Below are positions 3,905 through 27,561 of a stretch of DNA of 27,561 nucleotides, piece by piece. Below the pieces are notes generated by a model. That model worked only from the letters and a program-made list of their open reading frames with translations, was not told where the DNA came from and did no database searches. Both the position numbers and the translations under genes were made by a program. Position 1 is the first letter of the stretch; every line of letters starts with the position of its first letter. Source of the DNA: Candidatus Woesearchaeota archaeon (lineage in GTDB: Archaea > Nanobdellota > Nanobdellia > Nanobdellales > CAZNIQ01); contig CAZNIQ010000007.1 of NCBI GenBank assembly GCA_964573185.1, forward strand, positions 1 through 27,561, in the 5' to 3' direction.

Positions 3905-4240
3905 TTATAGCATTTCTGTAGGGAATTTCTTTGGAAAATCTATGCTTTGTGTTATTTTTGGTCCTATAAACCATTTAGCAACCCAAGTTCCACAAACTTT
4001 ACAATGTCCAGTATCTGTTATTAACTCGGGTGTTAATTTTATACCACAGAAAGGACACCTAATTTCTTTTTCTTTAACATATTCTCTTAATTCCTTTACA
4101 ATTTGATCTAAATGTTTCTTTAAAACATGTTCAATAGCTTTTTCCCTTATCTTTTTATAACTCCTCTTAAACTTCTTTACTTTTGTAACATCTATTTTAT
4201 ATTCAAATGTACAGTATGGGCAGCTGAAACCTTTGAGCAT
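3905..4240 (-). CDS. zinc-ribbon protein, function unknown (111 aa)
   Basis: Three Cys pairs: CPYC, CPFC and CKVC. The stop codon abuts the tRNA-Cys 3' end. Confidence 0.45.
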   Translation of the reverse strand: MLKGFSCPYCTFEYKIDVTKVKKFKRSYKKIREKAIEHVLKKHLDQIVKELREYVKEKEIRCPFCGIKLTPELITDTGHCKVCGTWVAKWFIGPKITQSIDFPKKFPTEML

Positions 4241-4915: not shown

Positions 4916-4979
4916 TTATTTTTGATGATGAGCTACTAGGCTCCTGATCATGATGAACCAGACCTGCACTGAAAAATAA
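4916..4979 (+). ncRNA. box C/D sRNA
   Basis: Box C AUGAUGA 4925-4931; 12-nt guide gcuacuaggcuc; D' CUGA 4944-4947; C' AUGAUGA 4950-4956; 12-nt guide accagaccugca; D CUGA 4969-4972. Flanks UUAUUUU (4916-4922) and AAAAUAA (4973-4979) are complementary. Confidence 0.9.
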
Positions 4980-6171: not shown

Positions 6172-6426
6172 ATGGAAAGATATTCTGCTAGGGATATAAT
6201 TGGTAAAACTGTTGTATCAAAGAGTGGTAGAAAATTTGGGGAGGTCGCTGATATAATCTTTGAAGTGAGAACTGGAGAGTTATTGCACTTAGTAGTTAGA
6301 AATCCCACACCTTATGCTTTAAGTTTAGATTTGGAAAAAACACCACAAGGAGAAATTTTAGTTCCGTTTACAGCTGTTATAGCAATAGGAGATTTCGTTA
6401 TAATTTCTGAGGAGGATTTAGTCTAA
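6172..6426 (+). CDS. PRC-barrel domain protein (84 aa)
   Basis: ARDIIGKTVVSKSGRKFGEVADIIFEVRTGELLHLVV is a typical PRC-barrel pattern. Confidence 0.6.
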   Translation: MERYSARDIIGKTVVSKSGRKFGEVADIIFEVRTGELLHLVVRNPTPYALSLDLEKTPQGEILVPFTAVIAIGDFVIISEEDLV

Positions 6427-8229
6427 TCTTTTTCTATCACAGAAGCCATTTGGTAAGCACATTTCAATTATTTTTCCATAAACGTTATACATCTTATTAA
6501 AGCACCATAACGATGGATAATAAGTTATTTCAATAACTTCTCCTGGTCTTAAAATATTTTTTGAAACGTTAGCATACAAATCCTCCTTAGAGCATAAAAT
6601 CCTTCCTGACGAATCTAATATTTTTACATAAATATCTTTTAGATTTATTGCTGTAGTTCCGGTATTTGAAATCGTTACCCTAATTGGATAGAATATGGAA
6701 TAGTTTGCGTAAAGAAGTTTTACCTCTTCTTGTGATAAAGCCCTTTTAAAGAGGTAGATTTCATCAATAGAAATATTAGCCCAACCATTACCAATCGGGC
6801 ATATTGCCTTATTTGGATGATTTATATACAAATCCTTATCATTATCCTTTATATACCCTCTAATATCTCCCCACGAAGCTCCTAAACTATATTGTCCATC
6901 CTTAAAAGGTTTTAATTCCCAATCTTGTGAAGAATATATAGCCGCAAGATGAGTCCATTTTGAGAAGGGAATAGCATAAGTCCACCTTCTTTCAGTATTT
7001 GTACCATTTCCTACAGAGAATCCTACTATTCCAAATTCTTCTAGTACTACACTAAATCCTGTCGAAGTACCAGCTGTAGATCCTTTGTGCATAATACTCC
7101 TCCAATTATTCTTTGAATCACAATTTGGATTATTATTTGGTTTCAACCAAAACGAAATCCCTAATTCTTTGATATTGTCTATACTAGGTGAATCCTTTAT
7201 TAGGATATAACTCCCAATGGGAGTGTTATTAAATTGCAAATAATATCCCCAAGGCCCTTTTTTGATAAAACTTAAATCATTCACATATTTTCCTTTTCCT
7301 TCATCAAAAGATAAATGCAAGACTAAAGAATCATCTCTTGGGCAATTTCTGATATCTTGATAACAAGCTTTAATTTCCTCATCTGAGAGAGGTTTATTAT
7401 AAATCAGTAACTCGTAAAAAATAGCCTTTATGCCACACTCATTTCCAGAACAATCTTCTCCTCCAATATAAAGATAAACTTGTGATGGGTATCCTTTTAC
7501 TTTGGTAAAACAATGGGGATTTTCCGCCTTTCCATTTATGTAGAAAATAATACAATTAGAAGAACTGTTATATACTGCTGCTATAAAGTTTGTTTTATTT
7601 AATATTATTTTACTAGAACTGACCAATACTTCTTTGTTCCCACCATCACCAATTTTAAATTGAATTCGATGGTCTTGTGTTATTGCTAGAGAATACCCTT
7701 CTGTCCCCCAACTAGTATCAGTTGTTGTAACAATAGTTGAGCAATTATTTTCTAATTGAATAGGTTTTAGAATCACTATAATCGTCTTGCTACCATTAAA
7801 TGCTGCTAAACTGTTAGATATTTTAATACAACCATCTTCTAGAAAGTTAACATATAATCCTTTGTCTTCCCACCTATAATCCCCTTTAGTACCTTTATAT
7901 ATTTCCCCCTTCAAATTTCCATAGAATATACCATCATTATGATAATTTGAAACATCCTTAAAAGTAACATTACACATTATATTATCACAGGTAAAGTACC
8001 AATCCTCAAAGTTCATCCCTAAAACTAAATCCGGATCTATATTTGCAAATGTCTCTAAAATACTAAATCTAGAGCCAGTAGTATAGATTATTCTTTCTGT
8101 TTGTTCCTGAGTTGCAGATTGAACAGAGGATTGTAGATGGGTTATAAATAGAAAAGCAGATATTCCAAAAGCAACAACAAGTAAAGATAATATCAATATA
8201 CCAACTACCGGAGAGATGGCTCTTTTCAT
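6418..8229 (-). CDS. secreted/surface protein: archaeal type IV pilin-like signal peptide plus two LamG (concanavalin-like lectin) domains plus a C-terminal beta-sandwich
   Basis: Start moved to ATG 8229, giving MKRAISPVVGILILSLLVVAFGISAFLF (class III signal/DUF1628-like K-R-A-I-SPVV motif). Two LamG-like blocks (LVLGMNFEDW... and LVLHLSFDEGKGKYVNDLS...LSQEEVKLLY). TATA on the minus strand lies about 25 nt upstream of ATG 8229. Confidence 0.65.
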   Translation of the reverse strand: MKRAISPVVGILILSLLVVAFGISAFLFITHLQSSVQSATQEQTERIIYTTGSRFSILETFANIDPDLVLGMNFEDWYFTCDNIMCNVTFKDVSNYHNDGIFYGNLKGEIYKGTKGDYRWEDKGLYVNFLEDGCIKISNSLAAFNGSKTIIVILKPIQLENNCSTIVTTTDTSWGTEGYSLAITQDHRIQFKIGDGGNKEVLVSSSKIILNKTNFIAAVYNSSSNCIIFYINGKAENPHCFTKVKGYPSQVYLYIGGEDCSGNECGIKAIFYELLIYNKPLSDEEIKACYQDIRNCPRDDSLVLHLSFDEGKGKYVNDLSFIKKGPWGYYLQFNNTPIGSYILIKDSPSIDNIKELGISFWLKPNNNPNCDSKNNWRSIMHKGSTAGTSTGFSVVLEEFGIVGFSVGNGTNTERRWTYAIPFSKWTHLAAIYSSQDWELKPFKDGQYSLGASWGDIRGYIKDNDKDLYINHPNKAICPIGNGWANISIDEIYLFKRALSQEEVKLLYANYSIFYPIRVTISNTGTTAINLKDIYVKILDSSGRILCSKEDLYANVSKNILRPGEVIEITYYPSLWCFNKMYNVYGKIIEMCLPNGFCDRKRLD

Positions 8230-9497: not shown

Positions 9498-10124
9498 ATG
9501 AAAATACTCAAAGAACTTGAGAAAGAAATAAAGGAATCTGGAGCAATACTTTTAGAAGAACGTTTTGCCCAGAACTTAGAATATATAATTGAAATTGATT
9601 TTACTAGAATACTTAAGGCTTTAAGAGCTTTTAGATATGGCAAACCAGATGAGATATATCTATTATTAGCAAAAATCCCTTCAGAAACAGCAAGAAAAAT
9701 ATATGAAAAATTTATTAAAATAAAAAATAAACTGATTAAGAAATATTTTTATTATGAATTAAACTTTACAATAATAGGAACTCATGAAGATTATCTAGAG
9801 GAGCTATATCAGTCTTTATTGAATGAGAAAAAAGAATGGCTGGAAAAATTAAAACCAACTCTTAATGAAATTAAGGAAAAAATAAAAGAGAAGTTTGGGA
9901 AAGAAGAAGTTTACTTAACAGGCTCTTTATCCCCAAAATCCGATAATATTTTCTTAGCATATGAATTCGAGAATACAGAAATTATATCTTCAATAGATTT
10001 CTTTATAAAGTCTGAAGAAATTTTGGATACAAAGGACTTCGAAAAGGAATTATCTTTAAAAAAAGGATTCAGGATAAATATAAAATATGGAAAAGATGTT
10101 CCAAAAAATGCTATTCCCTTATAG
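9498..10124 (+). CDS. hypothetical protein (208 aa), possibly a degenerate minimal nucleotidyltransferase fold
   Basis: C-terminal VYLTGSLSPKS...SSIDFFIK is weakly reminiscent of the G-S / D-x-D NTase motif; otherwise no motif. Confidence 0.3.
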   Translation: MKILKELEKEIKESGAILLEERFAQNLEYIIEIDFTRILKALRAFRYGKPDEIYLLLAKIPSETARKIYEKFIKIKNKLIKKYFYYELNFTIIGTHEDYLEELYQSLLNEKKEWLEKLKPTLNEIKEKIKEKFGKEEVYLTGSLSPKSDNIFLAYEFENTEIISSIDFFIKSEEILDTKDFEKELSLKKGFRINIKYGKDVPKNAIPL

Positions 10125-10656
10125 CCCCTACCTCTCTTAATTTCTTTTCTAAGAATTTTATAGCCTCCTCAATTTCTTTTTCAGATTTTGCACCTGCAAC
10201 AACTATTTTTCCATTTTTAAATATAAGAAATCTCACCTTTATTTCATTTGGCCTATAGATCAATCCGGGGAATTGTTCCGGTTCGTATTCTGCTTCTGGA
10301 AGTTTTTCTGCTAACTCCTCAAGATTTACTTGGAAATCCAACTTTCCGGAAGCAACCATATTTTGTATTTCTATTTTAGGTTCCCCTCCAACTTTAACAC
10401 CTAGTTTTTCTAATTTTTTAATAATCTCATCTAAAGCCTTTTTAATATCATCCATACTTTTAGCACCTGTTATAATTACTTTACCAGAGGAAAATAACAA
10501 AGCGGAAACTTTGGGGTTCTTTAATTTTAGCACCAAACCTGGGAATTGTTCTGGGTTGTATTCTGCTTCTGGCCACTCAATTGCAGCTTTTTCAAGAGGT
10601 ATAAAAGTATTTGGTAAAGTTACAGAAGCAACGATATTCTGTATTTCCCACTCCAT
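10111..10656 (-). CDS. tbp: TATA-box-binding protein
   Basis: Two direct repeats: IQNIVASVTL...PEQFPGLVLKL...LLFSSGKVIITGAKS and IQNMVASGKL...PEQFPGLIYRP...LIFKNGKIVVAGAKS. Confidence 0.95.
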   Translation of the reverse strand: MEWEIQNIVASVTLPNTFIPLEKAAIEWPEAEYNPEQFPGLVLKLKNPKVSALLFSSGKVIITGAKSMDDIKKALDEIIKKLEKLGVKVGGEPKIEIQNMVASGKLDFQVNLEELAEKLPEAEYEPEQFPGLIYRPNEIKVRFLIFKNGKIVVAGAKSEKEIEEAIKFLEKKLREVGAIRE

Positions 10657-14662: not shown

Positions 14663-15576
14663 GGGTATTTGTACAGTATCCAGAAGGCTTAAAGAACAAA
14701 CTTTGGGAAATAAAAAAGAAGTTAGAAGAACAAGGATATGAAGTCATTTTTGATAATGAACCGACGTATGGATTTTGTGATTTAAAGGATGATGAGGCTT
14801 TAAGATTAGGCTGTCAAGCTATAATACATATAGGGCATAATGCTTTTGGCTTTGAACATTTATTAAAGAAATCTAAAGTTAAAGTAATTATATGGGAATG
14901 GAAATATGATGTTGATAAAGAAAAAGTAGATAGAATACTTAAAAAAGAAATAAATAAGATTAGAGATTATAAGAGAGTCGGAATTGTATCTTCTTTACAA
15001 TATCTAAATTACGTTTATTATTTAAAGGAAAAACTTAAAGAATTGGGGTTTGAACCAATAGTACCAAAGAATCCGCAGATTTTAGGTTGTAATATTGCCA
15101 ATGCTAGAATAATAGAAAATAGAGTAGATATCTTTTTGGTTCCAACAGAAGGAAAATTTTATCCTTTAGGTTTAGCTTTAGAGACTGATAAACCGGTATT
15201 CGCTTTCGATTTAGAAAAAGAACAAATAATTTCAATGGAAAAGGAAAGGAAAAAATATTTAACTGTAAAATATTATTACTTAGAGAAATTTAAAGAAGCT
15301 AAGAAAGTTGCTTTGTTAGTATCATGGAAAAAGGGACAAATGTTTTATGATCCATTTAAAGTTAAAGAAGAATTGGAAAAAATGGGAAAAGAAGTTATTA
15401 TTCTAGCTATGGATGAAGTAGATGAAAGAAAATTAATTGGAATAGATGTGGATTTCTATATCAATTTAGCTTGTCCCAGGATCTTTGATGGGTTTGAAAG
15501 ATTTGAAAAACCAATACTAAATTGGAAAGATATTATTCAGTGGCGCCGCTCCCTTCATCAAAGTTCAGAGGACTGA
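14659..15576 (+). CDS. dph2: diphthamide synthase subunit Dph2 (2-(3-amino-3-carboxypropyl)histidine synthase)
   Basis: VQYPEGLKNKLWEIKKKLEEQGYEVIFDNEPTYGFCDL...IIHIGH, plus conserved Cys in LGCNI and LACPRI. Apparent TTG start overlaps the upstream stop. The last ~13 codons are antisense to a C/D sRNA. Confidence 0.8.
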   Translation: MRVFVQYPEGLKNKLWEIKKKLEEQGYEVIFDNEPTYGFCDLKDDEALRLGCQAIIHIGHNAFGFEHLLKKSKVKVIIWEWKYDVDKEKVDRILKKEINKIRDYKRVGIVSSLQYLNYVYYLKEKLKELGFEPIVPKNPQILGCNIANARIIENRVDIFLVPTEGKFYPLGLALETDKPVFAFDLEKEQIISMEKERKKYLTVKYYYLEKFKEAKKVALLVSWKKGQMFYDPFKVKEELEKMGKEVIILAMDEVDERKLIGIDVDFYINLACPRIFDGFERFEKPILNWKDIIQWRRSLHQSSED

Positions 15577-15587
15577 AAGCTCATCAT
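15537..15587 (-). ncRNA. box C/D sRNA (second unit of the tRNA-Leu array)
   Basis: Minus strand: C AUGAUGA 15587-15581; 12-nt guide gcuuucaguccu; D' CUGA 15568-15565; C' UGAUGA 15560-15555; 14-nt guide agggagcggcgcca; D CUGA 15540-15537. Confidence 0.85.
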
Positions 15588-15638
15588 TCAGTTAAGCCCG
15601 CCTTTCATCAAATTTCAGGGTCCCAGCTGTATCATCAT
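15588..15638 (-). ncRNA. box C/D sRNA (first unit, fused to the tRNA-Leu 3' end)
   Basis: Minus strand: C AUGAUGA 15638-15632, whose first A is the tRNA discriminator; 13-nt guide uacagcugggacc; D' CUGA 15618-15615; C' UGAUGA 15610-15605; 13-nt guide aaggcgggcuuaa; D CUGA 15591-15588. Confidence 0.88.
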
Positions 15639-15721
15639 GGGCCCGCCGGGATTTGAACCCGGGACGGCTCTACGCCATCGGGACCTGAACCCGACCCCTT
15701 TGGCCGCTCGGGCACGGGCCC
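15638..15721 (-). tRNA. tRNA-Leu(CAG): tRNA-Leu (anticodon CAG), class II with long variable arm
   Basis: rc: GGGCCCG UG CCCG AGCGGCCAA AGGG G UCGGG UUCAGGU CCCGA UGGCGUAGAGCCGUC CCGGG UUCAAAU CCCGG CGGGCCC A. Confidence 0.9.
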
Positions 15722-16936
15722 TTATGAAATTGCTTCTGCTATTATTATATTTCCCTTTATTTCTTTTATTCTTATCTTTTGAAAATTTTCGTTCTTTGAA
15801 TAAACAGATATTGTCCAATTTTTAAACTTCGTTAAATATTCATTTCTCCTCCTTCCTTCTACTATAGGTTCTGCTTTCAATACCATGCCTTTTCTAAAAG
15901 GATTCCTTATCATTTTTCCTTTCTTTATCCCTATTTCTCTTGGATCAAAATTTATCAATTTTATATTATATTTTTTCTCCAATTTTTTCAAGTAATCTAT
16001 AAATTCTTGTTTAGATATTCTTAGTTCTTTCCTCAATTTCCTTCCGTGCTTATAAACCATGTATATCTGCGGTACTATTTTTAATCTCCATTTATTCTTT
16101 AGTTTTTTAGCAAACTCAATTAATTTTTCCAGATCCTCTAAATTCCATTTAAAAATTACTGGAGTCAATGTTATTTCAACCTTTCCATTTATATTCTCAA
16201 TTATCCACAAAACTTTTTCTAAATCATAATCATGATTTCCTACTAATATTTTTGCCTTTTTAGGATCTAATGTATGAATTGAAAGGTTTATATAGGACAA
16301 TCCGGCTTCTATCCATCCTTCAACATCCTTCAAATCAACTCCTACTAATGTCGTTGTAATTCCAACCCTCCCAATTTCTGATAAGTCCTGTATAAGTTCT
16401 GTTAATTCTGGATACAATATTGGTTCCCCTTGAGGATTTATATAGAAATCTGGCTCATCAACTTCTTTTAGTTTTACAATTCTTTTTGCCTCTTCAACTA
16501 AATATTCTCTCTGAACTATAAAGTCCCTTATCCAGTATTTTTCTCTTGGTCCTTCACGAACAGAGCAAAAAATACATTGGTTTAAACATCCTGTAATTGG
16601 TCTTACCTCTATTACATTAGAAGGCCAATCTCTAAATCCAAAATATAAAGTTCCTAGCAAAGGTAAAAAGTCAAAATCTATATAGGTTGCTTTTCTTCCT
16701 GTAATTAAGGATTTCATTTCATAATGAATTTTATTGTAAAGAATGTCTAAAAATCTATTTTTCACATAATTTTCTTTTTTTGAATAAAAAATTATTACTC
16801 CATCTTTTACCTCAAATGGTGCTAAATCCCTTATTTCCTCCTTATATATTTCAAAATAAAACATATTATAGAAAATGCCTAGTATTTTATTTCCCCTTTC
16901 TTTGAATTTCAACGTTTTAAACTCAAATTTAAGCAT
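15722..16936 (-). CDS. radical SAM protein (COG2100-like Fe-S oxidoreductase)
   Basis: CxxxCxxC cluster motif GCLNQCIFCSV; 404 aa; stop TAA directly abuts G1 of tRNA-Leu. Confidence 0.7.
   Translation of the reverse strand: MLKFEFKTLKFKERGNKILGIFYNMFYFEIYKEEIRDLAPFEVKDGVIIFYSKKENYVKNRFLDILYNKIHYEMKSLITGRKATYIDFDFLPLLGTLYFGFRDWPSNVIEVRPITGCLNQCIFCSVREGPREKYWIRDFIVQREYLVEEAKRIVKLKEVDEPDFYINPQGEPILYPELTELIQDLSEIGRVGITTTLVGVDLKDVEGWIEAGLSYINLSIHTLDPKKAKILVGNHDYDLEKVLWIIENINGKVEITLTPVIFKWNLEDLEKLIEFAKKLKNKWRLKIVPQIYMVYKHGRKLRKELRISKQEFIDYLKKLEKKYNIKLINFDPREIGIKKGKMIRNPFRKGMVLKAEPIVEGRRRNEYLTKFKNWTISVYSKNENFQKIRIKEIKGNIIIAEAIS
15741..15752 (-). promoter_or_regulatory. TATA-like AAATATAATAAT at -31..-20 of tRNA-Leu, inside the last codons of the radical-SAM CDS
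   Basis: rc of 15741-15752; encodes the N-I-I-I of the CDS C-terminus. Confidence 0.5.
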
Positions 16937-17018: not shown

Positions 17019-17048
17019 ATTTAAATTTTAATTTTAGTGTTCTTCTAA

Positions 17049-17097
17049 ATGATGATGAGTGGGTTTGCTGAAAATGATGAATGGCATGGGACACTGA
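17049..17097 (+). ncRNA. box C/D sRNA lying inside the 5' end of the UDG ORF
   Basis: C AUGAUGA 17049-17055; 12-nt guide ugaguggguuug; D' CUGA 17068-17071; C' AUGAUGA 17074-17080; 13-nt guide auggcaugggaca; D CUGA 17094-17097. Confidence 0.85.
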
Positions 17098-17705
17098 AAG
17101 AATTAGAAAAAGTTCATCAAGAGATCTTAAAATGTCAAAGATGTCCTTTATACAAATACATTACAAACAAAGTCCCCGGAGAAGGAGATCCCACTTCTGG
17201 AATAATGTTTATCGGAGAAGCCCCCGGGAGAGAAGAAGATAAACAAGGTAGACCTTTTGTCGGACCAGCTGGTAAACTATTAACAAAGATGATTGAAGAA
17301 AAATTGGGAATTCAAAGATCAAAAGTTTATATCACAAATGTTTTGAAATGTAGACCCCCAAATAATAGAGATCCTAAACCAGAAGAAATAGAAGCCTGCT
17401 CAATATGGTTAAAGAAACAGTTAGAGATTATAAAACCAAGAGTGGTTGTAACATTGGGTAGATACTCTACAGAATGGATATTCAAATATTTCGGTTTAAA
17501 ATTCACAAAAATTTCAGAAGTTAGAGGAAAAGTATATACTGTTAAAAAATGGGATCATGTAACTTATATAATTCCTACATATCATCCTGCAGCAGTTTTA
17601 TATCATCCGCAATGGAAAGAAGCTTTCGAAAGAGATTTTGAATTGATTAAGAAAGTTATAGAAGGAAAAGAAAAGAAGCCTAAAACATTGGTAGATTTCT
17701 TTTAA
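17049..17705 (+). CDS. udg: family 4 uracil-DNA glycosylase (Fe-S type)
   Basis: CQRCPL...GEGDPTSGIMFIGEAPGREEDKQGRPFVGPAGKLL...VYITNVLKCRPPNNRDP...HPAAVLY. The only in-frame ATGs upstream of the CxxC motif lie in the sRNA C box, so the true start is uncertain. Confidence 0.85.
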   Translation: MMMSGFAENDEWHGTLKELEKVHQEILKCQRCPLYKYITNKVPGEGDPTSGIMFIGEAPGREEDKQGRPFVGPAGKLLTKMIEEKLGIQRSKVYITNVLKCRPPNNRDPKPEEIEACSIWLKKQLEIIKPRVVVTLGRYSTEWIFKYFGLKFTKISEVRGKVYTVKKWDHVTYIIPTYHPAAVLYHPQWKEAFERDFELIKKVIEGKEKKPKTLVDFF

Positions 17706-18573: not shown

Positions 18574-19689
18574 ATGGATATAGAAAAGGCGATAGAGTTA
18601 ATAAAAAGGCCACCAACAGAAGAAGTTTTAACTGAGGAACTTTTAAGAGAATATTTAGAGCAAGGAGTAAAACTTAAGCATTATATAGGTTTTGAAATAT
18701 CGGGTTTTGTTCATTTAGGAACAGGTTTAATTTCTATGAAAAAAGTAGCGGACTTTCAGAAAGCTAAAATAGAAACGACTTTGTTTTTAGCAGATTATCA
18801 TTCCTGGATTAATAGAAAATTGGGAGGGGATTTGGAAACTATAAGAAAGGTTGCTAAAGGTTATTTTGCAGAGGCATTAAAGAAATCCTTAGAAATTGTA
18901 GGTGGGGATCCCGATAAAGTAAAAGTAATATTAGCATCAGAATTTTATGAGAAAATAGGAGTTGAATATTTTGAATATGTTTTGAGAGTTTCCATGAATA
19001 CCACATTATCAAGGATTAAAAAGAGTATTACAATTTTAGGTAGAAAACAAGGAGAATCAATATCCTTTGCACAGTTATTATATGTGCCAATGCAGGTTGC
19101 AGATATATTTGCTTTAAATGTTAACTTAGCTCATGGAGGAATGGATCAAAGAAAAGCTCATGTTATTGCTATAGAGGTTTCTGATGAATTTGGTTATAAA
19201 CCTGTAGCAGTACATCACCATCTACTTATGGGTTTGAATTTAACCGGAGAACAGGTTAAAGCTTTGAAAGAAAATAAAGAAGATGTTATTATTGATATAA
19301 AAATGTCTAAATCCAAACCGGATTCTGCAATATTTATACATGATACTCCTGAGGAAATTAGAAGGAAAATCAGAAAAGCTTATTGTCCTATAGGGGAAAT
19401 AGAATATAATCCTGTAATAGAGATATTAGAATACATAGTTTATCCCTATTTGAAGGAAAAAGAAGAGGAAATAGAAATTATTAATAAAAAGACAGGGGAA
19501 AGAAAAGTATTTGAAAATATTGAACAATTTAAGCAAGCATATAAGAACAAAGATGTGCATCCTTTAGATCTCAAAGAATTTGTAGCAGAAAAATTAATAG
19601 AGATGTTAGAACCGGCTAGAAAGTATTTCCTAGAAGGACCTGGAAAAAGATATTTAGAAGAGTTAAAGGAAATTAGAATCACAAGGTAA
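18574..19689 (+). CDS. tyrS: tyrosyl-tRNA synthetase (long archaeal type)
   Basis: [13 protein letters not shown] (HIGH region), [17 protein letters not shown], and AYCP...NPV near the C-terminus, paralleling M. jannaschii TyrRS. TrpRS not fully excluded. Confidence 0.8.
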
Positions 19690-19739
19690 TCAGACAGGGC
19701 CTCAGCTCATCATATTCAGCGTCGGTGTAGAATCATCAT
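19690..19739 (-). ncRNA. box C/D sRNA filling the gap between two convergent genes
   Basis: Minus strand: C AUGAUGA 19739-19733; 13-nt guide uucuacaccgacg; D' CUGA 19719-19716; C' AUGAUGA 19713-19707; 13-nt guide gcugaggcccugu; D CUGA 19693-19690. Confidence 0.88.
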
Positions 19740-19942
19740 TTTACTAATTTTATTTTTCCTGGAGAAACTTCTAAAACCTCCCCATTTTCTATAAGCAATT
19801 GCAAAAGAAAATTAAAATCTTCTTCTGGTAATCCCATTAATTCTTTTAGCTCTTCTATTGAAACACCATCTCCTCTGTCCAAATCCTCTATCAAAAATCT
19901 TAATTGTTCTAAATACTTCTTTACCTCTTTATCATCAAGCAT
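19736..19942 (-). CDS. small winged-helix-like protein (68 aa), function unknown
   Basis: GVSIEELKELMGLPEEDFNFLLQLLIENGEVLEV resembles a wHTH. The stop codon TGA (19738-19736) lies inside box C of the downstream sRNA. Confidence 0.45.
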   Translation of the reverse strand: MLDDKEVKKYLEQLRFLIEDLDRGDGVSIEELKELMGLPEEDFNFLLQLLIENGEVLEVSPGKIKLVK

Positions 19943-19981: not shown

Positions 19982-20073
19982 GGGCCCGTAGCTCAGCCTG
20001 GTTAGAGCGCCGGCCTTATAAGGCCGGGCTCTAAGACAGCCGGAGGTCCCGGGTTCAAATCCCGGCGGGCCCA
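19982..20073 (+). tRNA. tRNA-Ile(UAU): tRNA-Ile (anticodon UAU) with a 17-nt intron at the canonical 37/38 position
   Basis: GGGCCCG UA GCUC AGCCUGGUUA GAGC G CCGGC CUUAUA[intron]A GCCGG AGGUC CCGGG UUCAAAU CCCGG CGGGCCC A; mature length 75 nt. Confidence 0.85.
20021..20037 (+). other. tRNA intron with bulge-helix-bulge motif
   Basis: Intron AGGCCGGGCUCUAAGAC. C32-U33-U34-A35 pair with intron UAAG (20032-20035). The 3-nt bulges U36-A37-A and A-C-A38 flank this 4-bp helix, with both splice sites between bulge nucleotides 2 and 3. Confidence 0.75.
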
Positions 20074-21954: not shown

Positions 21955-23067
21955 ATGATAATTGCAGATCCGATCTACAACGTTATAGAATTGCCGGATG
22001 AACTTGAAAAACTTATAGATACTCCTGTAGTTCAAAGGTTAAGGAGGATCAAACAATTAGCTTTTGCAAATTTAGTATATCCATCTGCAAATCATACTAG
22101 ATTTGAACATTCTCTAGGAGTTGCTTTTCTTTCTGGAAAAATTGCGGAAAAGGTAAATGAAGATAAATTATTTTATCAGATCTGCGGTTTGTTGCATGAC
22201 GTTGGACATGGACCTTTCTCCCATGCATCAGAAGACGTTTTTCATGTTATTACGAATAAAACTCATGAAGATTTATCCGAATATTGGATAAAACAAATAA
22301 AAGACGTTATTTCTGAACTCGGATATGATTATAAAAAAGTTATAAAGGAAATTAAAGGAAAGGGTTTGGGGATTGTTAATTCTGAACTTGACGCTGATAG
22401 ATTGGATTATTTACAAAGAGATGCGCACCACACAGGAAATTACTTTGGAAAAATCTCTATCTGGTATTTAATAAATAACATTGCGAAAAGAGATGGGAAA
22501 ATTGTTTTTAAAGAAAAAGCAGTGCCAACAATAGAGCAAATATTAATAGCTAGAGGATTAATGTATAATACGGTTTATTTGCATAAAACCACAATATCAG
22601 CAACAGTCTTATTTTATGATGCTTTATTCAACTTAATTGAAAAAGGATATAAAATAGAGGAAATAATGAGGTTAGATGACTATAGATTGATAAAATTATT
22701 TATAGAGGAAGAAATAGAAGAATGGAAGAGAATTGAAAATAGAGATCTTCCAAAACTACTTTTGGAGTTTTATCCTTCCAAGGAATTAACATTCAAGGAA
22801 ATATTAGAAATTAGAGAAGAAATAGAAAGTAAAATTAACGTAAAAATCTATATTTGGCCATTAGAGTTGAAAGAGAAAAGAAAGAAATGGAAAATACATA
22901 TTCTATTAAATGATAATATTGTATCGTTATCTCGAGTTTCTAAAGTCACCCCTTATTTAAGTTTTTTAGAAAAGAGAGTAAAAGCAATAAGAATCTATGT
23001 AGATAAGAAATTTAAAAAAGAAGAAATAAAAGAAAGTATCCTTAAAATTTTAGATAGTTATCAGTAA
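21955..23067 (+). CDS. HD-domain phosphohydrolase (COG1078, dNTPase/SAMHD1-like)
   Basis: RFEHSLGVAFL...GLLHDVGHGPFSH...ELDADRLDYLQRDAHHTG. Start moved to ATG 21955 because the track start 21862 reads antisense through the sRNA. Confidence 0.8.
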   Translation: MIIADPIYNVIELPDELEKLIDTPVVQRLRRIKQLAFANLVYPSANHTRFEHSLGVAFLSGKIAEKVNEDKLFYQICGLLHDVGHGPFSHASEDVFHVITNKTHEDLSEYWIKQIKDVISELGYDYKKVIKEIKGKGLGIVNSELDADRLDYLQRDAHHTGNYFGKISIWYLINNIAKRDGKIVFKEKAVPTIEQILIARGLMYNTVYLHKTTISATVLFYDALFNLIEKGYKIEEIMRLDDYRLIKLFIEEEIEEWKRIENRDLPKLLLEFYPSKELTFKEILEIREEIESKINVKIYIWPLELKEKRKKWKIHILLNDNIVSLSRVSKVTPYLSFLEKRVKAIRIYVDKKFKKEEIKESILKILDSYQ

Positions 23068-23108
23068 CCTACCCTTTCATCACACTCAGACCACACAGCT
23101 ATCATCAT
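23061..23108 (-). ncRNA. box C/D sRNA
   Basis: Minus strand: C AUGAUGA 23108-23102; 12-nt guide uagcuguguggu; D' CUGA 23089-23086; C' UGAUGA 23082-23077; 12-nt guide aaggguagguua; D CUGA 23064-23061 (antisense to the last codons of the HD gene). Confidence 0.88.
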
Positions 23109-23135
23109 TTAAATCTTTAGTTCAAGAATTATTTT

Positions 23136-23549
23136 ATGAAAATCTATTTTAAGGAAATTACCATAGAAACTAATCAAAGAAGAGAGTTAATAAATATCAC
23201 CGAAAAAGTTGAAGAGGTTGTTAAAGAATCTAATATAAAAAATGGTGTTGTCTTGATTTTTGTTCCTCATGCAACAGCAGCATTAATTACTAACGAGGAT
23301 GAACCAAACATTAAGAAAGATTATCTCAATTTATTTGAGAAATTAGTTCCGGAAAATGGAAATTATTATCATAATTTAATAGACAATAATGCAGATGCAC
23401 ATTTACTAAGTGTATTATTGAAGCCTTTCTTGATATTTCCTATTAAAGATAATAGGGTCGTAAGAGGCACTTGGCAAGAGATATTCTTAGTAGAGTTGGA
23501 TGGACCCAGAATAAGAAGAATTATTATAGAAGTTCTGGGTCAGGGGTGA
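23136..23549 (+). CDS. YjbQ/UPF0047 family protein (secondary thiamine-phosphate synthase-like)
   Basis: 137 aa; INITEKVEEVV...GVVLIFVPHATAALITNEDEP...NADAHL...GTWQEIFLVELDGPR is the UPF0047 pattern. Confidence 0.75.
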   Translation: MKIYFKEITIETNQRRELINITEKVEEVVKESNIKNGVVLIFVPHATAALITNEDEPNIKKDYLNLFEKLVPENGNYYHNLIDNNADAHLLSVLLKPFLIFPIKDNRVVRGTWQEIFLVELDGPRIRRIIIEVLGQG

Positions 23550-23587
23550 CCGTGCTCATCATTTTCAGCTCTGTCAACGATCATCAT
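23540..23587 (-). ncRNA. box C/D sRNA
   Basis: Minus strand: C AUGAUGA 23587-23581; 12-nt guide ucguugacagag; D' CUGA 23568-23565; C' AUGAUGA 23562-23556; 12-nt guide gcacggucaccc; D CUGA 23543-23540 (antisense to the last codons of yjbQ-like). Confidence 0.88.
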
Positions 23588-23624
23588 TTTTTTAAACGTT
23601 GTATTACAAGGTATAAATAGATTT

Positions 23625-23696
23625 GGGGCCGTAGTCTAGCGGCATGACGCCGCCCTGACGAGGCGGAGGTCCGGGGTTCGAATCCCCGCGGCCCCA
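23625..23696 (+). tRNA. tRNA-Val(GAC): tRNA-Val (anticodon GAC)
   Basis: GGGGCCG UA GUCU AGCGGCA UGAC G CCGCC CUGACGA GGCGG AGGUC CGGGG UUCGAAU CCCCG CGGCCCC A. Confidence 0.88.
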
Positions 23697-23780
23697 GCCG
23701 CGGTGCCCGAGCGGTCCAAGGGGTCGGTCTGGAGAGCCGATGGCCGTAAGGCCTCCGGGGTTCGAATCCCCGCCGCGGCG
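23697..23780 (+). tRNA. tRNA-Ser(GGA): tRNA-Ser (anticodon GGA), class II, discriminator G
   Basis: GCCGCGG UG CCCG AGCGGUCCA AGGG G UCGGU CUGGAGA GCCGA UGGCCGUAAGGCCUC CGGGG UUCGAAU CCCCG CCGCGGC G. Starts at the base after the tRNA-Val discriminator. Confidence 0.88.
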
Positions 23781-25445
23781 CTAGGATAAAGCATTTTTTA
23801 AGACAAGCTTCAATAAATCTTCAGAATCTATTTTATAATTATATCTTCTCCAATCGTACTCAACTATTTCCTTTTCTTTGATAATTGTTATGTCTAGTTT
23901 TTCTAAGGGAATATATTTTTTTAAAACATTAAATAACAAATTGAAATCACCCTGTATTATTTTTCTTTTTTCTATCTTTACCTTTCCCTTCCATTTTGGA
24001 TTAAAACTTTCAGGAAATTTCTCTTCAACGGAATACATAAATTCTTTTTTAACATATACTTTTCCTATAGGAGTATAAAAATAAACAATTTCTCCCATTT
24101 CTAAACCCTTTTTTAAAGCTTCCCTTACTTCTCTTAAGGTAGCTCCTGTAATTTCCTTAATCCATTCCTCTGGCAGTGGTTCTGTAAGAATATCTAAAAT
24201 CTTTGAAATTCTACTTTTCATCCAAACTTCTTTTAATAAATCAGCAGATATTCCTATGTCAATATATCTTTTTACATGTTCCAAGCCTAACAAAAATAGA
24301 TCGGTATCAATAGTATTTGGGGTAATTATGTAAGTTGCAAATTTCAATGGTTTTGAAGGTCTCATAATTCTTCCGTGTCTTTGAATAAATCTTAAAGGAT
24401 TAGAGGTATGCGACCAAATTATTAGCAAATCTGCTTCAGGTAGATCAACACCTTCCTCACCAGCAGAAGTAGAGATTATTATCTTAGATTTCTTAGCCTC
24501 CTCAAGCTTTTCTCTCATTTTTTCTCTTAACTTACCAACTATTAATGTGACGGAATATTCTTTACTTAGAATTTCATACAGTTTCTTTGCAATAATAACT
24601 CTATCAACAAAAATTATAGCTTTTTCAAAACCTTCATAGACATTCAATATTTTGAAAAGGGTAGGTAATTTATGTAAATCCCTTAATTGGATTATTTTTT
24701 CTTTCAAATCTTCTAATTTTTCAGATAGCTTTGTTCTTTTGGATAAGCTTTCTTTTAGAGCTAAAGCACCATCTGACGAAAAATATTTCAGAGCCAAAGT
24801 ATAAATAAGCTTTTCAGTTCCTTTTGCTTTTTTTCTTCTTTCATCAATTATATCGTATATCTCTTGTTCTTCTTTATTAAAGGGTGCTTCAAAGATATCT
24901 CCAATCCAAGAGGGAACGTATTTTGAAACTAATGGGTGTGTAGCCGGGTATTCCTTTATAATTCCTATTAATTCTTCCAATTCTTTTCTTCTCTTTTTAG
25001 GAATGAAAGCCGTTAAACCCAAAGCATATTCAAAATCTATATTTTTTAATACTTTTACGTAAGCATCTTCTCCAACAGCATGGTGACATTCATCAACTAC
25101 AACAATCTTAAAGTCTTTAGCAAACTCTAAATCATAATAAACTGTTTCAGGAGTTGCTATAACTATTTTTGCTTTCTTCCAAAGTTCTTTTCTTTTCTCT
25201 TTCCTATAAATCCCGTAAATTTTTATAGCATTTAAACCCCAATCTTTATACATCCTTTCAGTTTGTTCAACTAAAATTCTTGTTGGAACAAGAACTAAAG
25301 CCTTATAATCTGGGTGTTTTTTTAGAAGCTCTTTAACAAAATGTATACCAACTATAGTCTTACCTGTTCCTGTGGGTAAAACGATAATGCTTTTCTTTTG
25401 TTTTAAAGCAAAATCGAGAGCTTCTTTTTGATATTCTCTAAGCAT
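23781..25445 (-). CDS. SF2 DEAD/DEAH-box helicase, Hef/FANCM-like helicase module
   Basis: REYQKEAL...VLPTGTGKT (motif I), VVDECHHAVGEDAY (motif II, resembles Hef DEAHRAVGNYAY) and QRHGRIMR (motif VI). 554 aa; no nuclease domain seen. Confidence 0.7.
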   Translation of the reverse strand: MLREYQKEALDFALKQKKSIIVLPTGTGKTIVGIHFVKELLKKHPDYKALVLVPTRILVEQTERMYKDWGLNAIKIYGIYRKEKRKELWKKAKIVIATPETVYYDLEFAKDFKIVVVDECHHAVGEDAYVKVLKNIDFEYALGLTAFIPKKRRKELEELIGIIKEYPATHPLVSKYVPSWIGDIFEAPFNKEEQEIYDIIDERRKKAKGTEKLIYTLALKYFSSDGALALKESLSKRTKLSEKLEDLKEKIIQLRDLHKLPTLFKILNVYEGFEKAIIFVDRVIIAKKLYEILSKEYSVTLIVGKLREKMREKLEEAKKSKIIISTSAGEEGVDLPEADLLIIWSHTSNPLRFIQRHGRIMRPSKPLKFATYIITPNTIDTDLFLLGLEHVKRYIDIGISADLLKEVWMKSRISKILDILTEPLPEEWIKEITGATLREVREALKKGLEMGEIVYFYTPIGKVYVKKEFMYSVEEKFPESFNPKWKGKVKIEKRKIIQGDFNLLFNVLKKYIPLEKLDITIIKEKEIVEYDWRRYNYKIDSEDLLKLVLKNALS

Positions 25446-26378: not shown

Positions 26379-27101
26379 ATGAAAGTACTACAGATACTCA
26401 AAGAAAGATATCCTGATACTTATGAAAAGATAATTAAAGGAGAAGTAGACAAGATAAAGCCAAAAGACGAGATTGAAAAGATGCTTCTTGAAATTTTCTT
26501 TTCTAATGATAGGAGGAGTTCAAAATACATTGATGAATTTTTTAGATTAAAATGTGCAAAAGATATAGTTGAAATTTTAGGTAAGAATCTTTCAGCAAAA
26601 GAAATTACTGAAGCAATGAGTATTAGAGACAGATTAAGGAAATTAGATATAAAGGATGCTATTGTTTTTGATTTTTGTGCAGGAAAAGCAATATTTTCTT
26701 TATTAGTAGCATTTACTTTACCAGTTAGAAAAGTTATCGCAATAGATATCAAAAAACCGAATATAGATTTTTCAGGAGTAAGAAAATTTGAGTACTATGA
26801 GGTTAATTTATTTGATAAAGAAGTTGAGGAGATTATAGAAAAAGAAGAAGGTAGGAAAATTTTTGTTGGAATCCATTGTTGTAAAAATTTATCTATAAGA
26901 GTAATAGAGTTATTCAATAAATATGGAGATTATTTATTTTTAATGCCTTGTTGTGTTTTAAGAACTTTTAAGAACGATTTCTGGGGATATATAGATTGGG
27001 TAAAGTTCCTAGTATCAAAAGTTAAAAAGGGGAAGGTTAAAGTAGAATGGGATTGGGATGTGTGGTCCGAAAGAAATGCTATAATTCAGGTGATGACCTG
27101 A
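26379..27101 (+). CDS. putative Rossmann-fold methyltransferase-like protein (weak)
   Basis: VFDFCAGKAIFSLL...VIAIDIK resembles MTase motifs I/II; paired Cys motifs HCCKN and MPCC. The last codons GTG ATG ACC form box C of the following sRNA. Confidence 0.4.
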   Translation: MKVLQILKERYPDTYEKIIKGEVDKIKPKDEIEKMLLEIFFSNDRRSSKYIDEFFRLKCAKDIVEILGKNLSAKEITEAMSIRDRLRKLDIKDAIVFDFCAGKAIFSLLVAFTLPVRKVIAIDIKKPNIDFSGVRKFEYYEVNLFDKEVEEIIEKEEGRKIFVGIHCCKNLSIRVIELFNKYGDYLFLMPCCVLRTFKNDFWGYIDWVKFLVSKVKKGKVKVEWDWDVWSERNAIIQVMT

Positions 27102-27139
27102 TAGGCAAACAGAGAAATGAAGAACCTACCCGTAACTGA
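27090..27139 (+). ncRNA. box C/D sRNA (unit 1 of 3)
   Basis: C GUGAUGA 27090-27096; 13-nt guide ccugauaggcaaa; D' CAGA 27110-27113; C' AUGAAGA 27117-27123; 12-nt guide accuacccguaa; D CUGA 27136-27139. Confidence 0.75.
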
Positions 27140-27187
27140 TGATGAGCCTGTTACCATCAGATTTATGAAGACACCGCGAGGTGCTGA
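27139..27187 (+). ncRNA. box C/D sRNA (unit 2 of 3)
   Basis: C AUGAUGA 27139-27145 (first A shared with the preceding box D); 12-nt guide gccuguuaccau; D' CAGA 27158-27161; C' AUGAAGA 27165-27171; 12-nt guide caccgcgaggug; D CUGA 27184-27187. Confidence 0.8.
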
Positions 27188-27237
27188 ATGATGAATTTTC
27201 CTGCTACTGAAAATTGATGAAAGGTCCCATTCACTGA
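27188..27237 (+). ncRNA. box C/D sRNA (unit 3 of 3)
   Basis: C AUGAUGA 27188-27194; 12-nt guide auuuuccugcua; D' CUGA 27207-27210; C' UGAUGA 27215-27220; 13-nt guide aaggucccauuca; D CUGA 27234-27237. Confidence 0.88.
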
Positions 27238-27561
27238 TTATACTCTCCTACCTCTCTTACCTCCTTTTCTTCTACAACCGTCATGTGGAATTGGTGTAAC
27301 ATCCTCTATTATCCCAATTTTTAATCCTGCGTTAATCAAAGCCTTTATAGCAGCTTGAGCACCAGGACCTGGATGTTTCGGTCCGTTATGACCACCAGGG
27401 CCCCTTACTTTGACATGTACAGCGTTTATTCCTCTTTCCAAGGCTAATTCGGCTGCTTTTCTTGCAGCAAGCATGGCAGCAGTAGGTGTTCCTTCCAATC
27501 TATCAGCATCTACTACTTGACCACCCGAAGCTAAAGCAATTGTTTCTGCTCCTGTTATATC
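27238..27561 (-). CDS. rps11: 30S ribosomal protein S11 (C-terminal part; gene continues beyond the right edge)
   Basis: ...[57 protein letters not shown]...[44 protein letters not shown]. The frame stays open upstream of the track's TTG start. Confidence 0.9.

Follow-up and report, generated by a model that had tools for sequence, protein, structure and literature searches.

tRNase Z cuts tRNA precursors after the discriminator base and RNase P cuts them before position +1, and both enzymes leave a 3′-hydroxyl and a 5′-phosphate. [quoted passage not shown] The same account describes tRNA-Ser(AGY) as lacking a D-arm and as not being a substrate of RNase P, and the joint as conserved across mammals. 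In Nanoarchaeum equitans, a promoter-less C/D box sRNA, sRNA8, abuts the discriminator of tRNA-Val(TAC), and RNase Z (NEQ064) has been proposed as the maker of its 5′ end (Randau 2012, PMC3491384). This organism is described as free of RNase P and its tRNAs as leaderless, each having its promoter 26/27 nt upstream (Randau 2008, as relayed in PMC10100707), and both of its tRNA-Glu species are trans-spliced (PMC3655853). The nanoarchaeon Nst1 retains a reduced RNase P and has no split tRNAs (PMC3655853, PMC4919917).

Here, we analyze a pair of tRNA genes, tRNA-Val(GAC) and tRNA-Ser(GGA), that abut on an archaeal chromosome within a stretch of 27,561 nt, referred to below as the window. No earlier report of a zero-spacer tRNA–tRNA pair in Archaea was found in limited literature searches. 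With the mitochondrial pair, as that pair is relayed, the locus shares the absence of a spacer between two tRNA genes on the same strand, the absence of a promoter for the downstream tRNA, and, by prediction, one precursor in which one cut serves both tRNAs. It differs in that the downstream tRNA is not aberrant but a canonical class II tRNA, that the joint is absent from a sister genome, and that it lies on a cellular chromosome rather than in an organelle; the cut, established in mitochondria, is predicted here. The N. equitans sRNA8 dicistron is similar in phylum, in having tRNA-Val upstream, and in the promoter-less RNA that abuts the discriminator. Its downstream partner, however, is a C/D sRNA and not a second tRNA, and every N. 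equitans tRNA is reported with its own promoter, whereas tRNA-Ser(GGA) has none.

The leaderless system, as far as its relayed description goes, is found in a related organism with a compact genome and likewise places A/T-rich TATA boxes a short distance before G+C-rich tRNA genes, but neither its fixed promoter distance nor its rule of one promoter per tRNA gene is observed in the lineage studied here. In bacterial tandem tRNA clusters of the Aquifex type, a promoter-less tRNA implies endonucleolytic maturation of the 5′ end, an argument made for a hidden RNase P, HARP (PMC10941002), that applies equally to tRNA-Ser(GGA). Those clusters have spacers, so that RNase Z alone is insufficient to complete the 5′ end, whereas the zero spacer of the Val–Ser pair would make RNase Z sufficient in principle.

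tRNA-Val(GAC) and tRNA-Ser(GGA) Abut without Intergenic Nucleotides

Searches with Rfam cmscan place tRNA-Val(GAC) at 23625–23696 on the plus strand (72 nt; 69.1 bits, full model 1–71) and tRNA-Ser(GGA) at 23697–23780 on the same strand (84 nt; 51.8 bits, full model). The last base of each match is the discriminator, A23696 in tRNA-Val and G23780 in tRNA-Ser, and the spacer between the two genes is 0 nt. A first-pass annotation, made from the sequence alone, had placed the Val discriminator at 23696 and G1 of tRNA-Ser at 23697, and the full-model matches bear out this assignment. tRNA-Val has a 7-bp acceptor stem. tRNA-Ser folds as a canonical class II cloverleaf with a long variable arm, and its D-arm and T-arm are present in both the Rfam and the ARAGORN predictions.

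ARAGORN assigns the same anticodons, GAC and GGA, with coordinates (23624–23699 and 23697–23781) that overlap by 3 nt. In its drawing of tRNA-Val, an eighth acceptor pair (T23624–A23696) is added and the next three bases, GCC, are printed as a 3′ tail, and its tRNA-Ser call is one base longer than that of Rfam. The overlap reflects the extension habit of the program and leaves the gene model unchanged; a canonical 7-bp stem followed by A73 leads to the Rfam boundaries, which agree with those originally drawn.

Neither gene encodes CCA, as had been noted, the bases past the discriminators being GCC (Val) and CTA (Ser). A convergent gene for a DEAD/ResIII helicase of the NEQ369 family occupies 23781–25445 on the minus strand, and its stop codon (23781–23783) adjoins G23780, again as first described. 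The junction is identical in an independent assembly, an ENA contig of 11,510 nt (L009) that is 99.948% identical to the window over 11.5 kb, with 6 mismatches that are SNPs; it is therefore not an assembly artifact. Among the ORFs of the window, UCU and UCC together account for 51% of Ser codons, and GUU and GUC for 54% of Val codons. Both tRNAs are major isoacceptors, and tRNA-Ser(GGA) is therefore not a dispensable relic.

The two genes also share an identical 19-nt T-arm segment, CCGGGGTTCGAATCCCCGC, at 23672–23690 in tRNA-Val and at 23756–23774 in tRNA-Ser. This direct repeat, with its copies 84 nt apart, could serve as a substrate for deletion or mispairing.

tRNA-Ser(GGA) Has No Promoter of Its Own

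Promoters were scored with a TATA position weight matrix (PWM) trained on the mRNA promoters of the window itself, the calls being soft because they are made in DNA of 70% A+T. Within 45 nt upstream of tRNA-Ser, no TATA-like 8-mer was found: the richest 8-mer, in the T-loop of tRNA-Val, has only 5 of 8 positions A or T, and the best PWM score, 1.4 bits, also falls in the T-loop (TTCGAATC, centered at −16.5). With the same matrix, tRNAs with a TTTAAA-type box, tRNA-Val included, score 5.9–7.7 bits, and no clear TATA site was found upstream of the Leu and Thr tRNAs. tRNA-Ser(GGA) thus lacks a promoter of its own, in agreement with the earlier argument that none could fit between the two genes.

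The best PWM site upstream of tRNA-Val, TTTTAAAC at 23590–23597 on the plus strand (6.8 bits), starts 35 nt before Val +1 and is the only candidate promoter for the Val–Ser unit. A TATA box occupies the same −35 position before the identical tRNA-Val in contig L010 of a sister MAG (GCA_054017035.1, contigs L010 and L004), the proteins of which are 80–87% identical to those of the window. Divergent from tRNA-Val lies a C/D box sRNA (23538–23591, minus strand; boxes C ATGATGA, D′ CTGA, C′ TGATGA, and D CTGA; weak Rfam C/D matches), whose TATA box (23612–23619, minus strand) is situated between the sRNA and tRNA-Val. Downstream of the pair, a T6 run (23794–23799, plus strand) that lies antisense to the helicase ORF, within its 3′ end, is a candidate archaeal terminator, and T6 is also found downstream of tRNA-Ser(TGA) in L004.

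Since there is neither room nor signal for a promoter and no encoded CCA, tRNA-Ser would have to come from a dicistronic precursor, and the earlier reasoning to this effect holds. Such a Val–Ser precursor, with a single predicted cut at 23696/23697, is well supported by the single TATA box before tRNA-Val and the T6 run after tRNA-Ser. When the 156-nt Val–Ser RNA is folded at 37, 70, or 85 °C, it forms two domains with separate closing acceptor stems, and A23696 is the sole unpaired base between these stems. In the minimum free energy structure of a longer construct with flanks, the two identical T-arms pair with each other, which makes this prediction uninformative.

In the explanation that we propose, the two tRNAs would belong to a single transcription unit, set in a highly compact nanoarchaeal genome. 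RNA synthesis would start a few nucleotides upstream of tRNA-Val, directed by the TATA box at 23590–23597, proceed through both genes, and presumably end at the T6 run, 14–19 nt past tRNA-Ser. The precursor would adopt two independent cloverleaves, separated only by the Val discriminator A. One hydrolytic cut between A23696 and G23697 would then produce a Val 3′-hydroxyl ready for CCA addition and a Ser 5′-phosphate, which upholds the original suggestion that one endonucleolytic event generates both ends.

Exact Butt Joints Abound in This Genome

The Val–Ser junction is not the only one of its kind in the window. On the minus strand, the stop codon of a radical-SAM ORF (15722–15724), tRNA-Leu(CAG) (15721–15638), and two C/D sRNAs (15637–15588 and 15587–15537) follow one another without spacers, the joints reading …TAA/GGGCCC…CCCA/TGATGA…CTGA/ATGATGA…CTGA. 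At 15638/15637, the discriminator of tRNA-Leu(CAG) meets the C box with no promoter between them, the hallmark of the tRNA–C/D sRNA dicistrons of N. equitans and plants. The region 15537–15724 looks like a punctuated mRNA–tRNA–sRNA–sRNA array similar to the tRNA–sRNA dicistrons of N. equitans, its tRNA-Leu–sRNA–sRNA portion being of the same type as tRNA-Val–sRNA8.

Three further C/D box sRNAs are arranged head to tail at 27087–27240 (plus strand), with the D box CTGA directly before the next C box. Additional C/D sRNA candidates are located at 4921–4975 (plus strand), 17045–17099 (plus strand, overlapping the UDG start codon), 19687–19743 (minus strand), and 23058–23112 (minus strand); the C/D sRNA candidates score below the Rfam gathering thresholds, yet have clear C, D′, C′, and D boxes. 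Four of the eight tRNAs have at their 3′ end the stop codon of a convergent ORF, namely Cys (3904/3905), Thr (17703–17705, a 1-nt overlap), the tRNA with anticodon CAT (20073/20074), and Ser (23780/23781). Exact butt joints, in the ORF–tRNA–sRNA–sRNA series as in the sRNA arrays, are the rule in this genome, and the zero spacing of the Val–Ser pair therefore needs no cause other than compaction together with selection against damage to either gene.

The Junction Coincides with a Synteny Breakpoint

The window has a G+C content of 31.6%, whereas its tRNAs reach 67–75%, as expected for a hyperthermophile. The arrangement of an AP endonuclease gene, a helicase gene, and an abutting tRNA is common to the window and N. 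equitans, and the helicase is 55% identical to a Nanopusillus protein. Because the helicase is only 57% identical to N. equitans NEQ369 and tRNA-Glu(CTC) is contiguous (unsplit) in the window, the organism is, as judged from these sequences, a marine nanoarchaeote other than N. equitans. The related contigs come from hydrothermal-vent metagenomes. A helicase search of the genome collection returned only unrelated bacterial loci. Pattern scans of metagenomes gave 0 matches for the Ser 5′ end within 0–20 nt downstream of any tRNA T-loop and 0 matches for the Ser(GGA) anticodon arm, and a tRNA-Val scan of viral contigs likewise gave 0 matches.

Comparison with the relatives points to the origin of the junction. 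In L010, an HD–YjbQ block is followed by tRNA-Val(GAC), 100% identical in sequence to that of the window, and then by the ATG of a different helicase of 509 aa. In L004, the AP-endonuclease–helicase block ends against tRNA-Ser(TGA), which has its own promoter in a 35-nt A/T spacer with TATA boxes, beyond which lies a divergent tRNA-Ala. By blastn, the homology of L010 to the window ends at 23696 and that of L004 at 23696/7. Another relative (L013) carries the same tRNA-Val, also 100% identical, with unrelated sequence after it; in N. equitans, tRNA-Gly(CCC) lies beside the helicase gene and the Val–Ser pair is lacking; and two other contigs (L006 and L014) have no tRNA at the corresponding place. 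Among the sequences compared, the window and its near-identical counterpart L009 alone have the butt joint, the two genes not being adjacent in L010, L004, L013, or N. equitans.

The absence of the pair from the relatives and the meeting of two homology blocks at the junction indicate that the joint is derived. It is the product of a recent rearrangement, with a breakpoint that matches both tRNA boundaries to the base. Blocks from two different sister-MAG contigs end exactly there, a coincidence of position that exceeds chance. The abutment of the helicase stop on a tRNA has been kept although the tRNA differs, being Gly-CCC in N. equitans, Ser-TGA in L004, and Ser-GGA in the window.

Two other features of L010 deserve description. 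At 10440–10514, the discriminator of its tRNA-Val(GAC) (10511) adjoins the ATG (10512) of the 509-aa DEAD helicase, so that a promoter would have no space, and a cut at the tRNA-Val 3′ end would free a leaderless mRNA starting at AUG. Relative to L010, the window contains at 6418–9223 extra genes for a 620-aa Laminin_G_3/ConA-like protein and a 121-aa PIN (VapC-like) protein, which sit within an otherwise collinear IleRS–TBP–methyltransferase–PRC–RadA block.

Promoter Geometry and the Enzyme at the Junction

[quoted passage not shown] The first-pass annotation had left the choice of enzyme open, which was the right position. It had also pictured tRNase Z as maturing the downstream 5′ end in a lineage that lacks RNase P. 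The principle of this proposal is already established elsewhere (PMC3790967, PMC3491384), but the RNase P–less setting is unsupported here, given that the organism is not N. equitans, that another nanoarchaeon, Nst1, has RNase P, and that the tRNA promoters do not keep to a fixed 26/27 nt.

The spacing of these promoters was compared with that of mRNA promoters. For mRNAs in the window, the TATA box starts with a mode of −29 relative to the ATG, as would fit leaderless mRNAs. The tRNA starts are −30, −30, −30, −34, and −35 within the window and range from −30 to −35 among the relatives: boxes at −30/−31 belong to Cys, Arg, the tRNA with anticodon CAT, and two tRNAs of relatives, and boxes at −33 to −35 to Glu, Val (in both genomes), and the L004 tRNAs for Ile, Ser, and Ala. 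The boxes of Val, Glu, and L004 Ser, Ala, and Ile thus lie 4–6 nt farther out than those of mRNAs, and neither Val nor Glu has a TATA-like sequence at the leaderless position. The TATA box of an L004 tRNA-Gln was placed at −27 by eye. As a control, the same matrix puts the TATA box at −26/−27 for the two N. equitans tRNAs scored, in line with the published distance. Mature tRNAs with a 5′-triphosphate and an extra purine at −1 on C1 tRNAs are further features of the N. equitans system; the window contains no tRNA-Tyr, tRNA-His, or tRNA-iMet.

A TATA box at −35 predicts that tRNA-Val probably carries a leader of 5–8 nt, and some 5′-processing activity would be needed for its removal. Since the tRNA promoters keep no fixed, leaderless distance and tRNA-Val apparently has a leader, we propose that, in contrast to N. 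equitans, this lineage has retained an activity that removes 5′ leaders; that such 5′-processing activity exists in the lineage is quite likely.

RNase P itself was sought in the available sequence. Rfam searches for RNase P RNA, at gathering and permissive thresholds, found none in the window and four relative loci, nor did a motif regular expression for CR-I/IV/V, and a scan for G+C-rich islands yielded only tRNAs, rRNA, and C/D sRNAs. Pfam and NCBIfam searches of every window ORF, six ORFs of unknown function among them, and of the exosome-adjacent ORFs of L010 returned no Rpp21, Rpp29, Rpp30, or Pop5. Two candidates were considered and rejected, the 121-aa PIN protein as HARP, since it is VapC-like, and a 111-aa zinc-ribbon ORF (3905–4240) as Rpp21, since its Cys spacing is wrong. 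As they cover the 27.6-kb window and ~58 kb of close relatives, against a genome of 0.5–0.8 Mb, these searches say little either way.

An alternative is a lineage free of RNase P, in which the other tRNAs would be primary transcripts from +1 and tRNase Z cleavage after tRNA-Val would be the only route to the Ser 5′ end. In such a cell, selection would have demanded the zero spacing, and no tRNA other than Ser(GGA) would carry a 5′-monophosphate. The spacing is indeed exactly zero, and in the absence of RNase P a spacer of any length would persist as a 5′ extension; the lack of an RNase P component in the sequence searched, the comparable role proposed for NEQ064 at sRNA8, and the N. equitans–like split or clamped tRNAs of relatives all fit this alternative. 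About half of the tRNA TATA starts, those at −30/−31, are displaced by only 1–2 nt from the mRNA mode, which fits leaderless starts, but the positions as a whole are variable, and the more distant boxes lie 4–6 nt beyond those of mRNAs, with the leaderless position before Val and Glu empty. The unsplit state of tRNA-Glu(CTC) is shared with Nst1, a nanoarchaeon that has RNase P. Furthermore, butt joints involving many feature types mean that zero spacing needs no special selection, and the Val–Ser joint is not conserved in the relatives.

On balance, a lineage without RNase P in which zero spacing is a necessity seems doubtful, and an RNase P bypass at the junction is possible but disfavored. 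Also unlikely is the variant in which RNase P has been lost, as it was in N. equitans, and a promoter-less tRNA survived the rearrangement thanks to the exact zero spacer. The junction is no evidence that the organism lacks RNase P. If RNase P had nevertheless been lost, a canonical cellular tRNA would depend strictly on tRNase Z for the maturation of its 5′ end, one 5′-monophosphate tRNA would stand among 5′-triphosphate ones, and the locus would provide a natural test case for tRNA operons in RNase P–free cells. We favor instead, as a reasonably probable account, a dicistron resolved by a single cut that arose by compaction and a recent rearrangement, and not an obligatory bypass of RNase P.

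Other Readings of the Junction

Three further explanations were rejected, on the PWM, second-assembly and cloverleaf, and fold evidence. In the first, an element within tRNA-Val would drive independent transcription of tRNA-Ser from a separate start site. This is a formal possibility only, and the T-loop motif TTCGAAT is the most A+T-rich stretch available, but the site there is both too weak and too close to tRNA-Ser, within a Val gene of 74% G+C, which makes an internal promoter very improbable.

The coincidence of the junction with a synteny breakpoint could also suggest a chimeric assembly, or a Ser(GGA) pseudogene left without a promoter by the rearrangement. The former is countered by the second assembly, which carries an identical junction and differs from the window by 6 SNPs. 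A decaying gene is difficult to reconcile with an intact cloverleaf, whose arms match those of the L004 tRNA-Ser except for the anticodon arm and one D-loop base, or with the decoding of 51% of the Ser codons in the window ORFs, and artifact or decay is accordingly rated as highly unlikely. Finally, a cut by the splicing endonuclease at a bulge–helix–bulge across the junction, as for split tRNA halves, is hardly credible even though this enzyme is widely used in Nanoarchaeota and CCGCGGC at the Val end is complementary to GCCGCGG at the Ser start, because the formed cloverleaves leave one unpaired nucleotide at the junction and no 3-nt bulges, and because of its products, a 2′,3′-cyclic phosphate and a 5′-hydroxyl, the former would block CCA addition to tRNA-Val.

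Interrupted and Split tRNA Genes in the Window and Its Relatives

Several tRNA genes encountered in this analysis are interrupted or incomplete. The window tRNA with anticodon CAT (19982–20073, plus strand; Rfam 65.3 bits), unnamed by ARAGORN, has an 18-nt intron beside the anticodon; it may be elongator Met or Ile2. In L004, a tRNA-Gln(UUG) gene at 6459–6992 (minus strand) is split at 37/38 by an intron of 461 nt, with exons at 6992–6955 (5′) and 6493–6459 (3′). The intron ends carry complementary G+C clamps, GCCGCCGCCCGC and GCGGGCGGCGGC, like the leaders and trailers of N. equitans split halves, and an antisense LAGLIDADG_3 ORF lies inside the intron. ARAGORN recognizes the joined exons as tRNA-Gln, whereas the unspliced gene is missed by both ARAGORN and Rfam. 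This gene may be a cis-encoded intermediate toward a split tRNA.

A second case is an orphan tRNA 3′ half in another relative (L012, GCA_054016815.1) at 9660–9740 (plus strand), which comprises the 3′ strand of the anticodon stem, the T-arm, and the 3′ strand of the acceptor. It is preceded by a G+C-rich leader, CACCGCCACCGG, and is a candidate trans-spliced half; no partner was found among the relative loci examined. With such N. equitans–like traits in its relatives, the lineage could share more of N. equitans RNA biology than assumed.

Discussion

The Val–Ser joint adds a recent case, in a new setting, to a known principle of RNA processing. tRNA punctuation operates, or can operate, between two canonical tRNAs on a cellular archaeal chromosome, and butt joints of the tRNA–sRNA and tRNA–mRNA types occur in the same clade. 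Because the joint is recent and lies at a synteny breakpoint, it illustrates how compaction and rearrangement at tRNA genes make new operons, which existing processing enzymes would tolerate at once. The 5′ chemistry of a single tRNA, tRNA-Ser(GGA), would offer a simple handle on the presence of RNase P in vent nanoarchaeotes beyond N. equitans.
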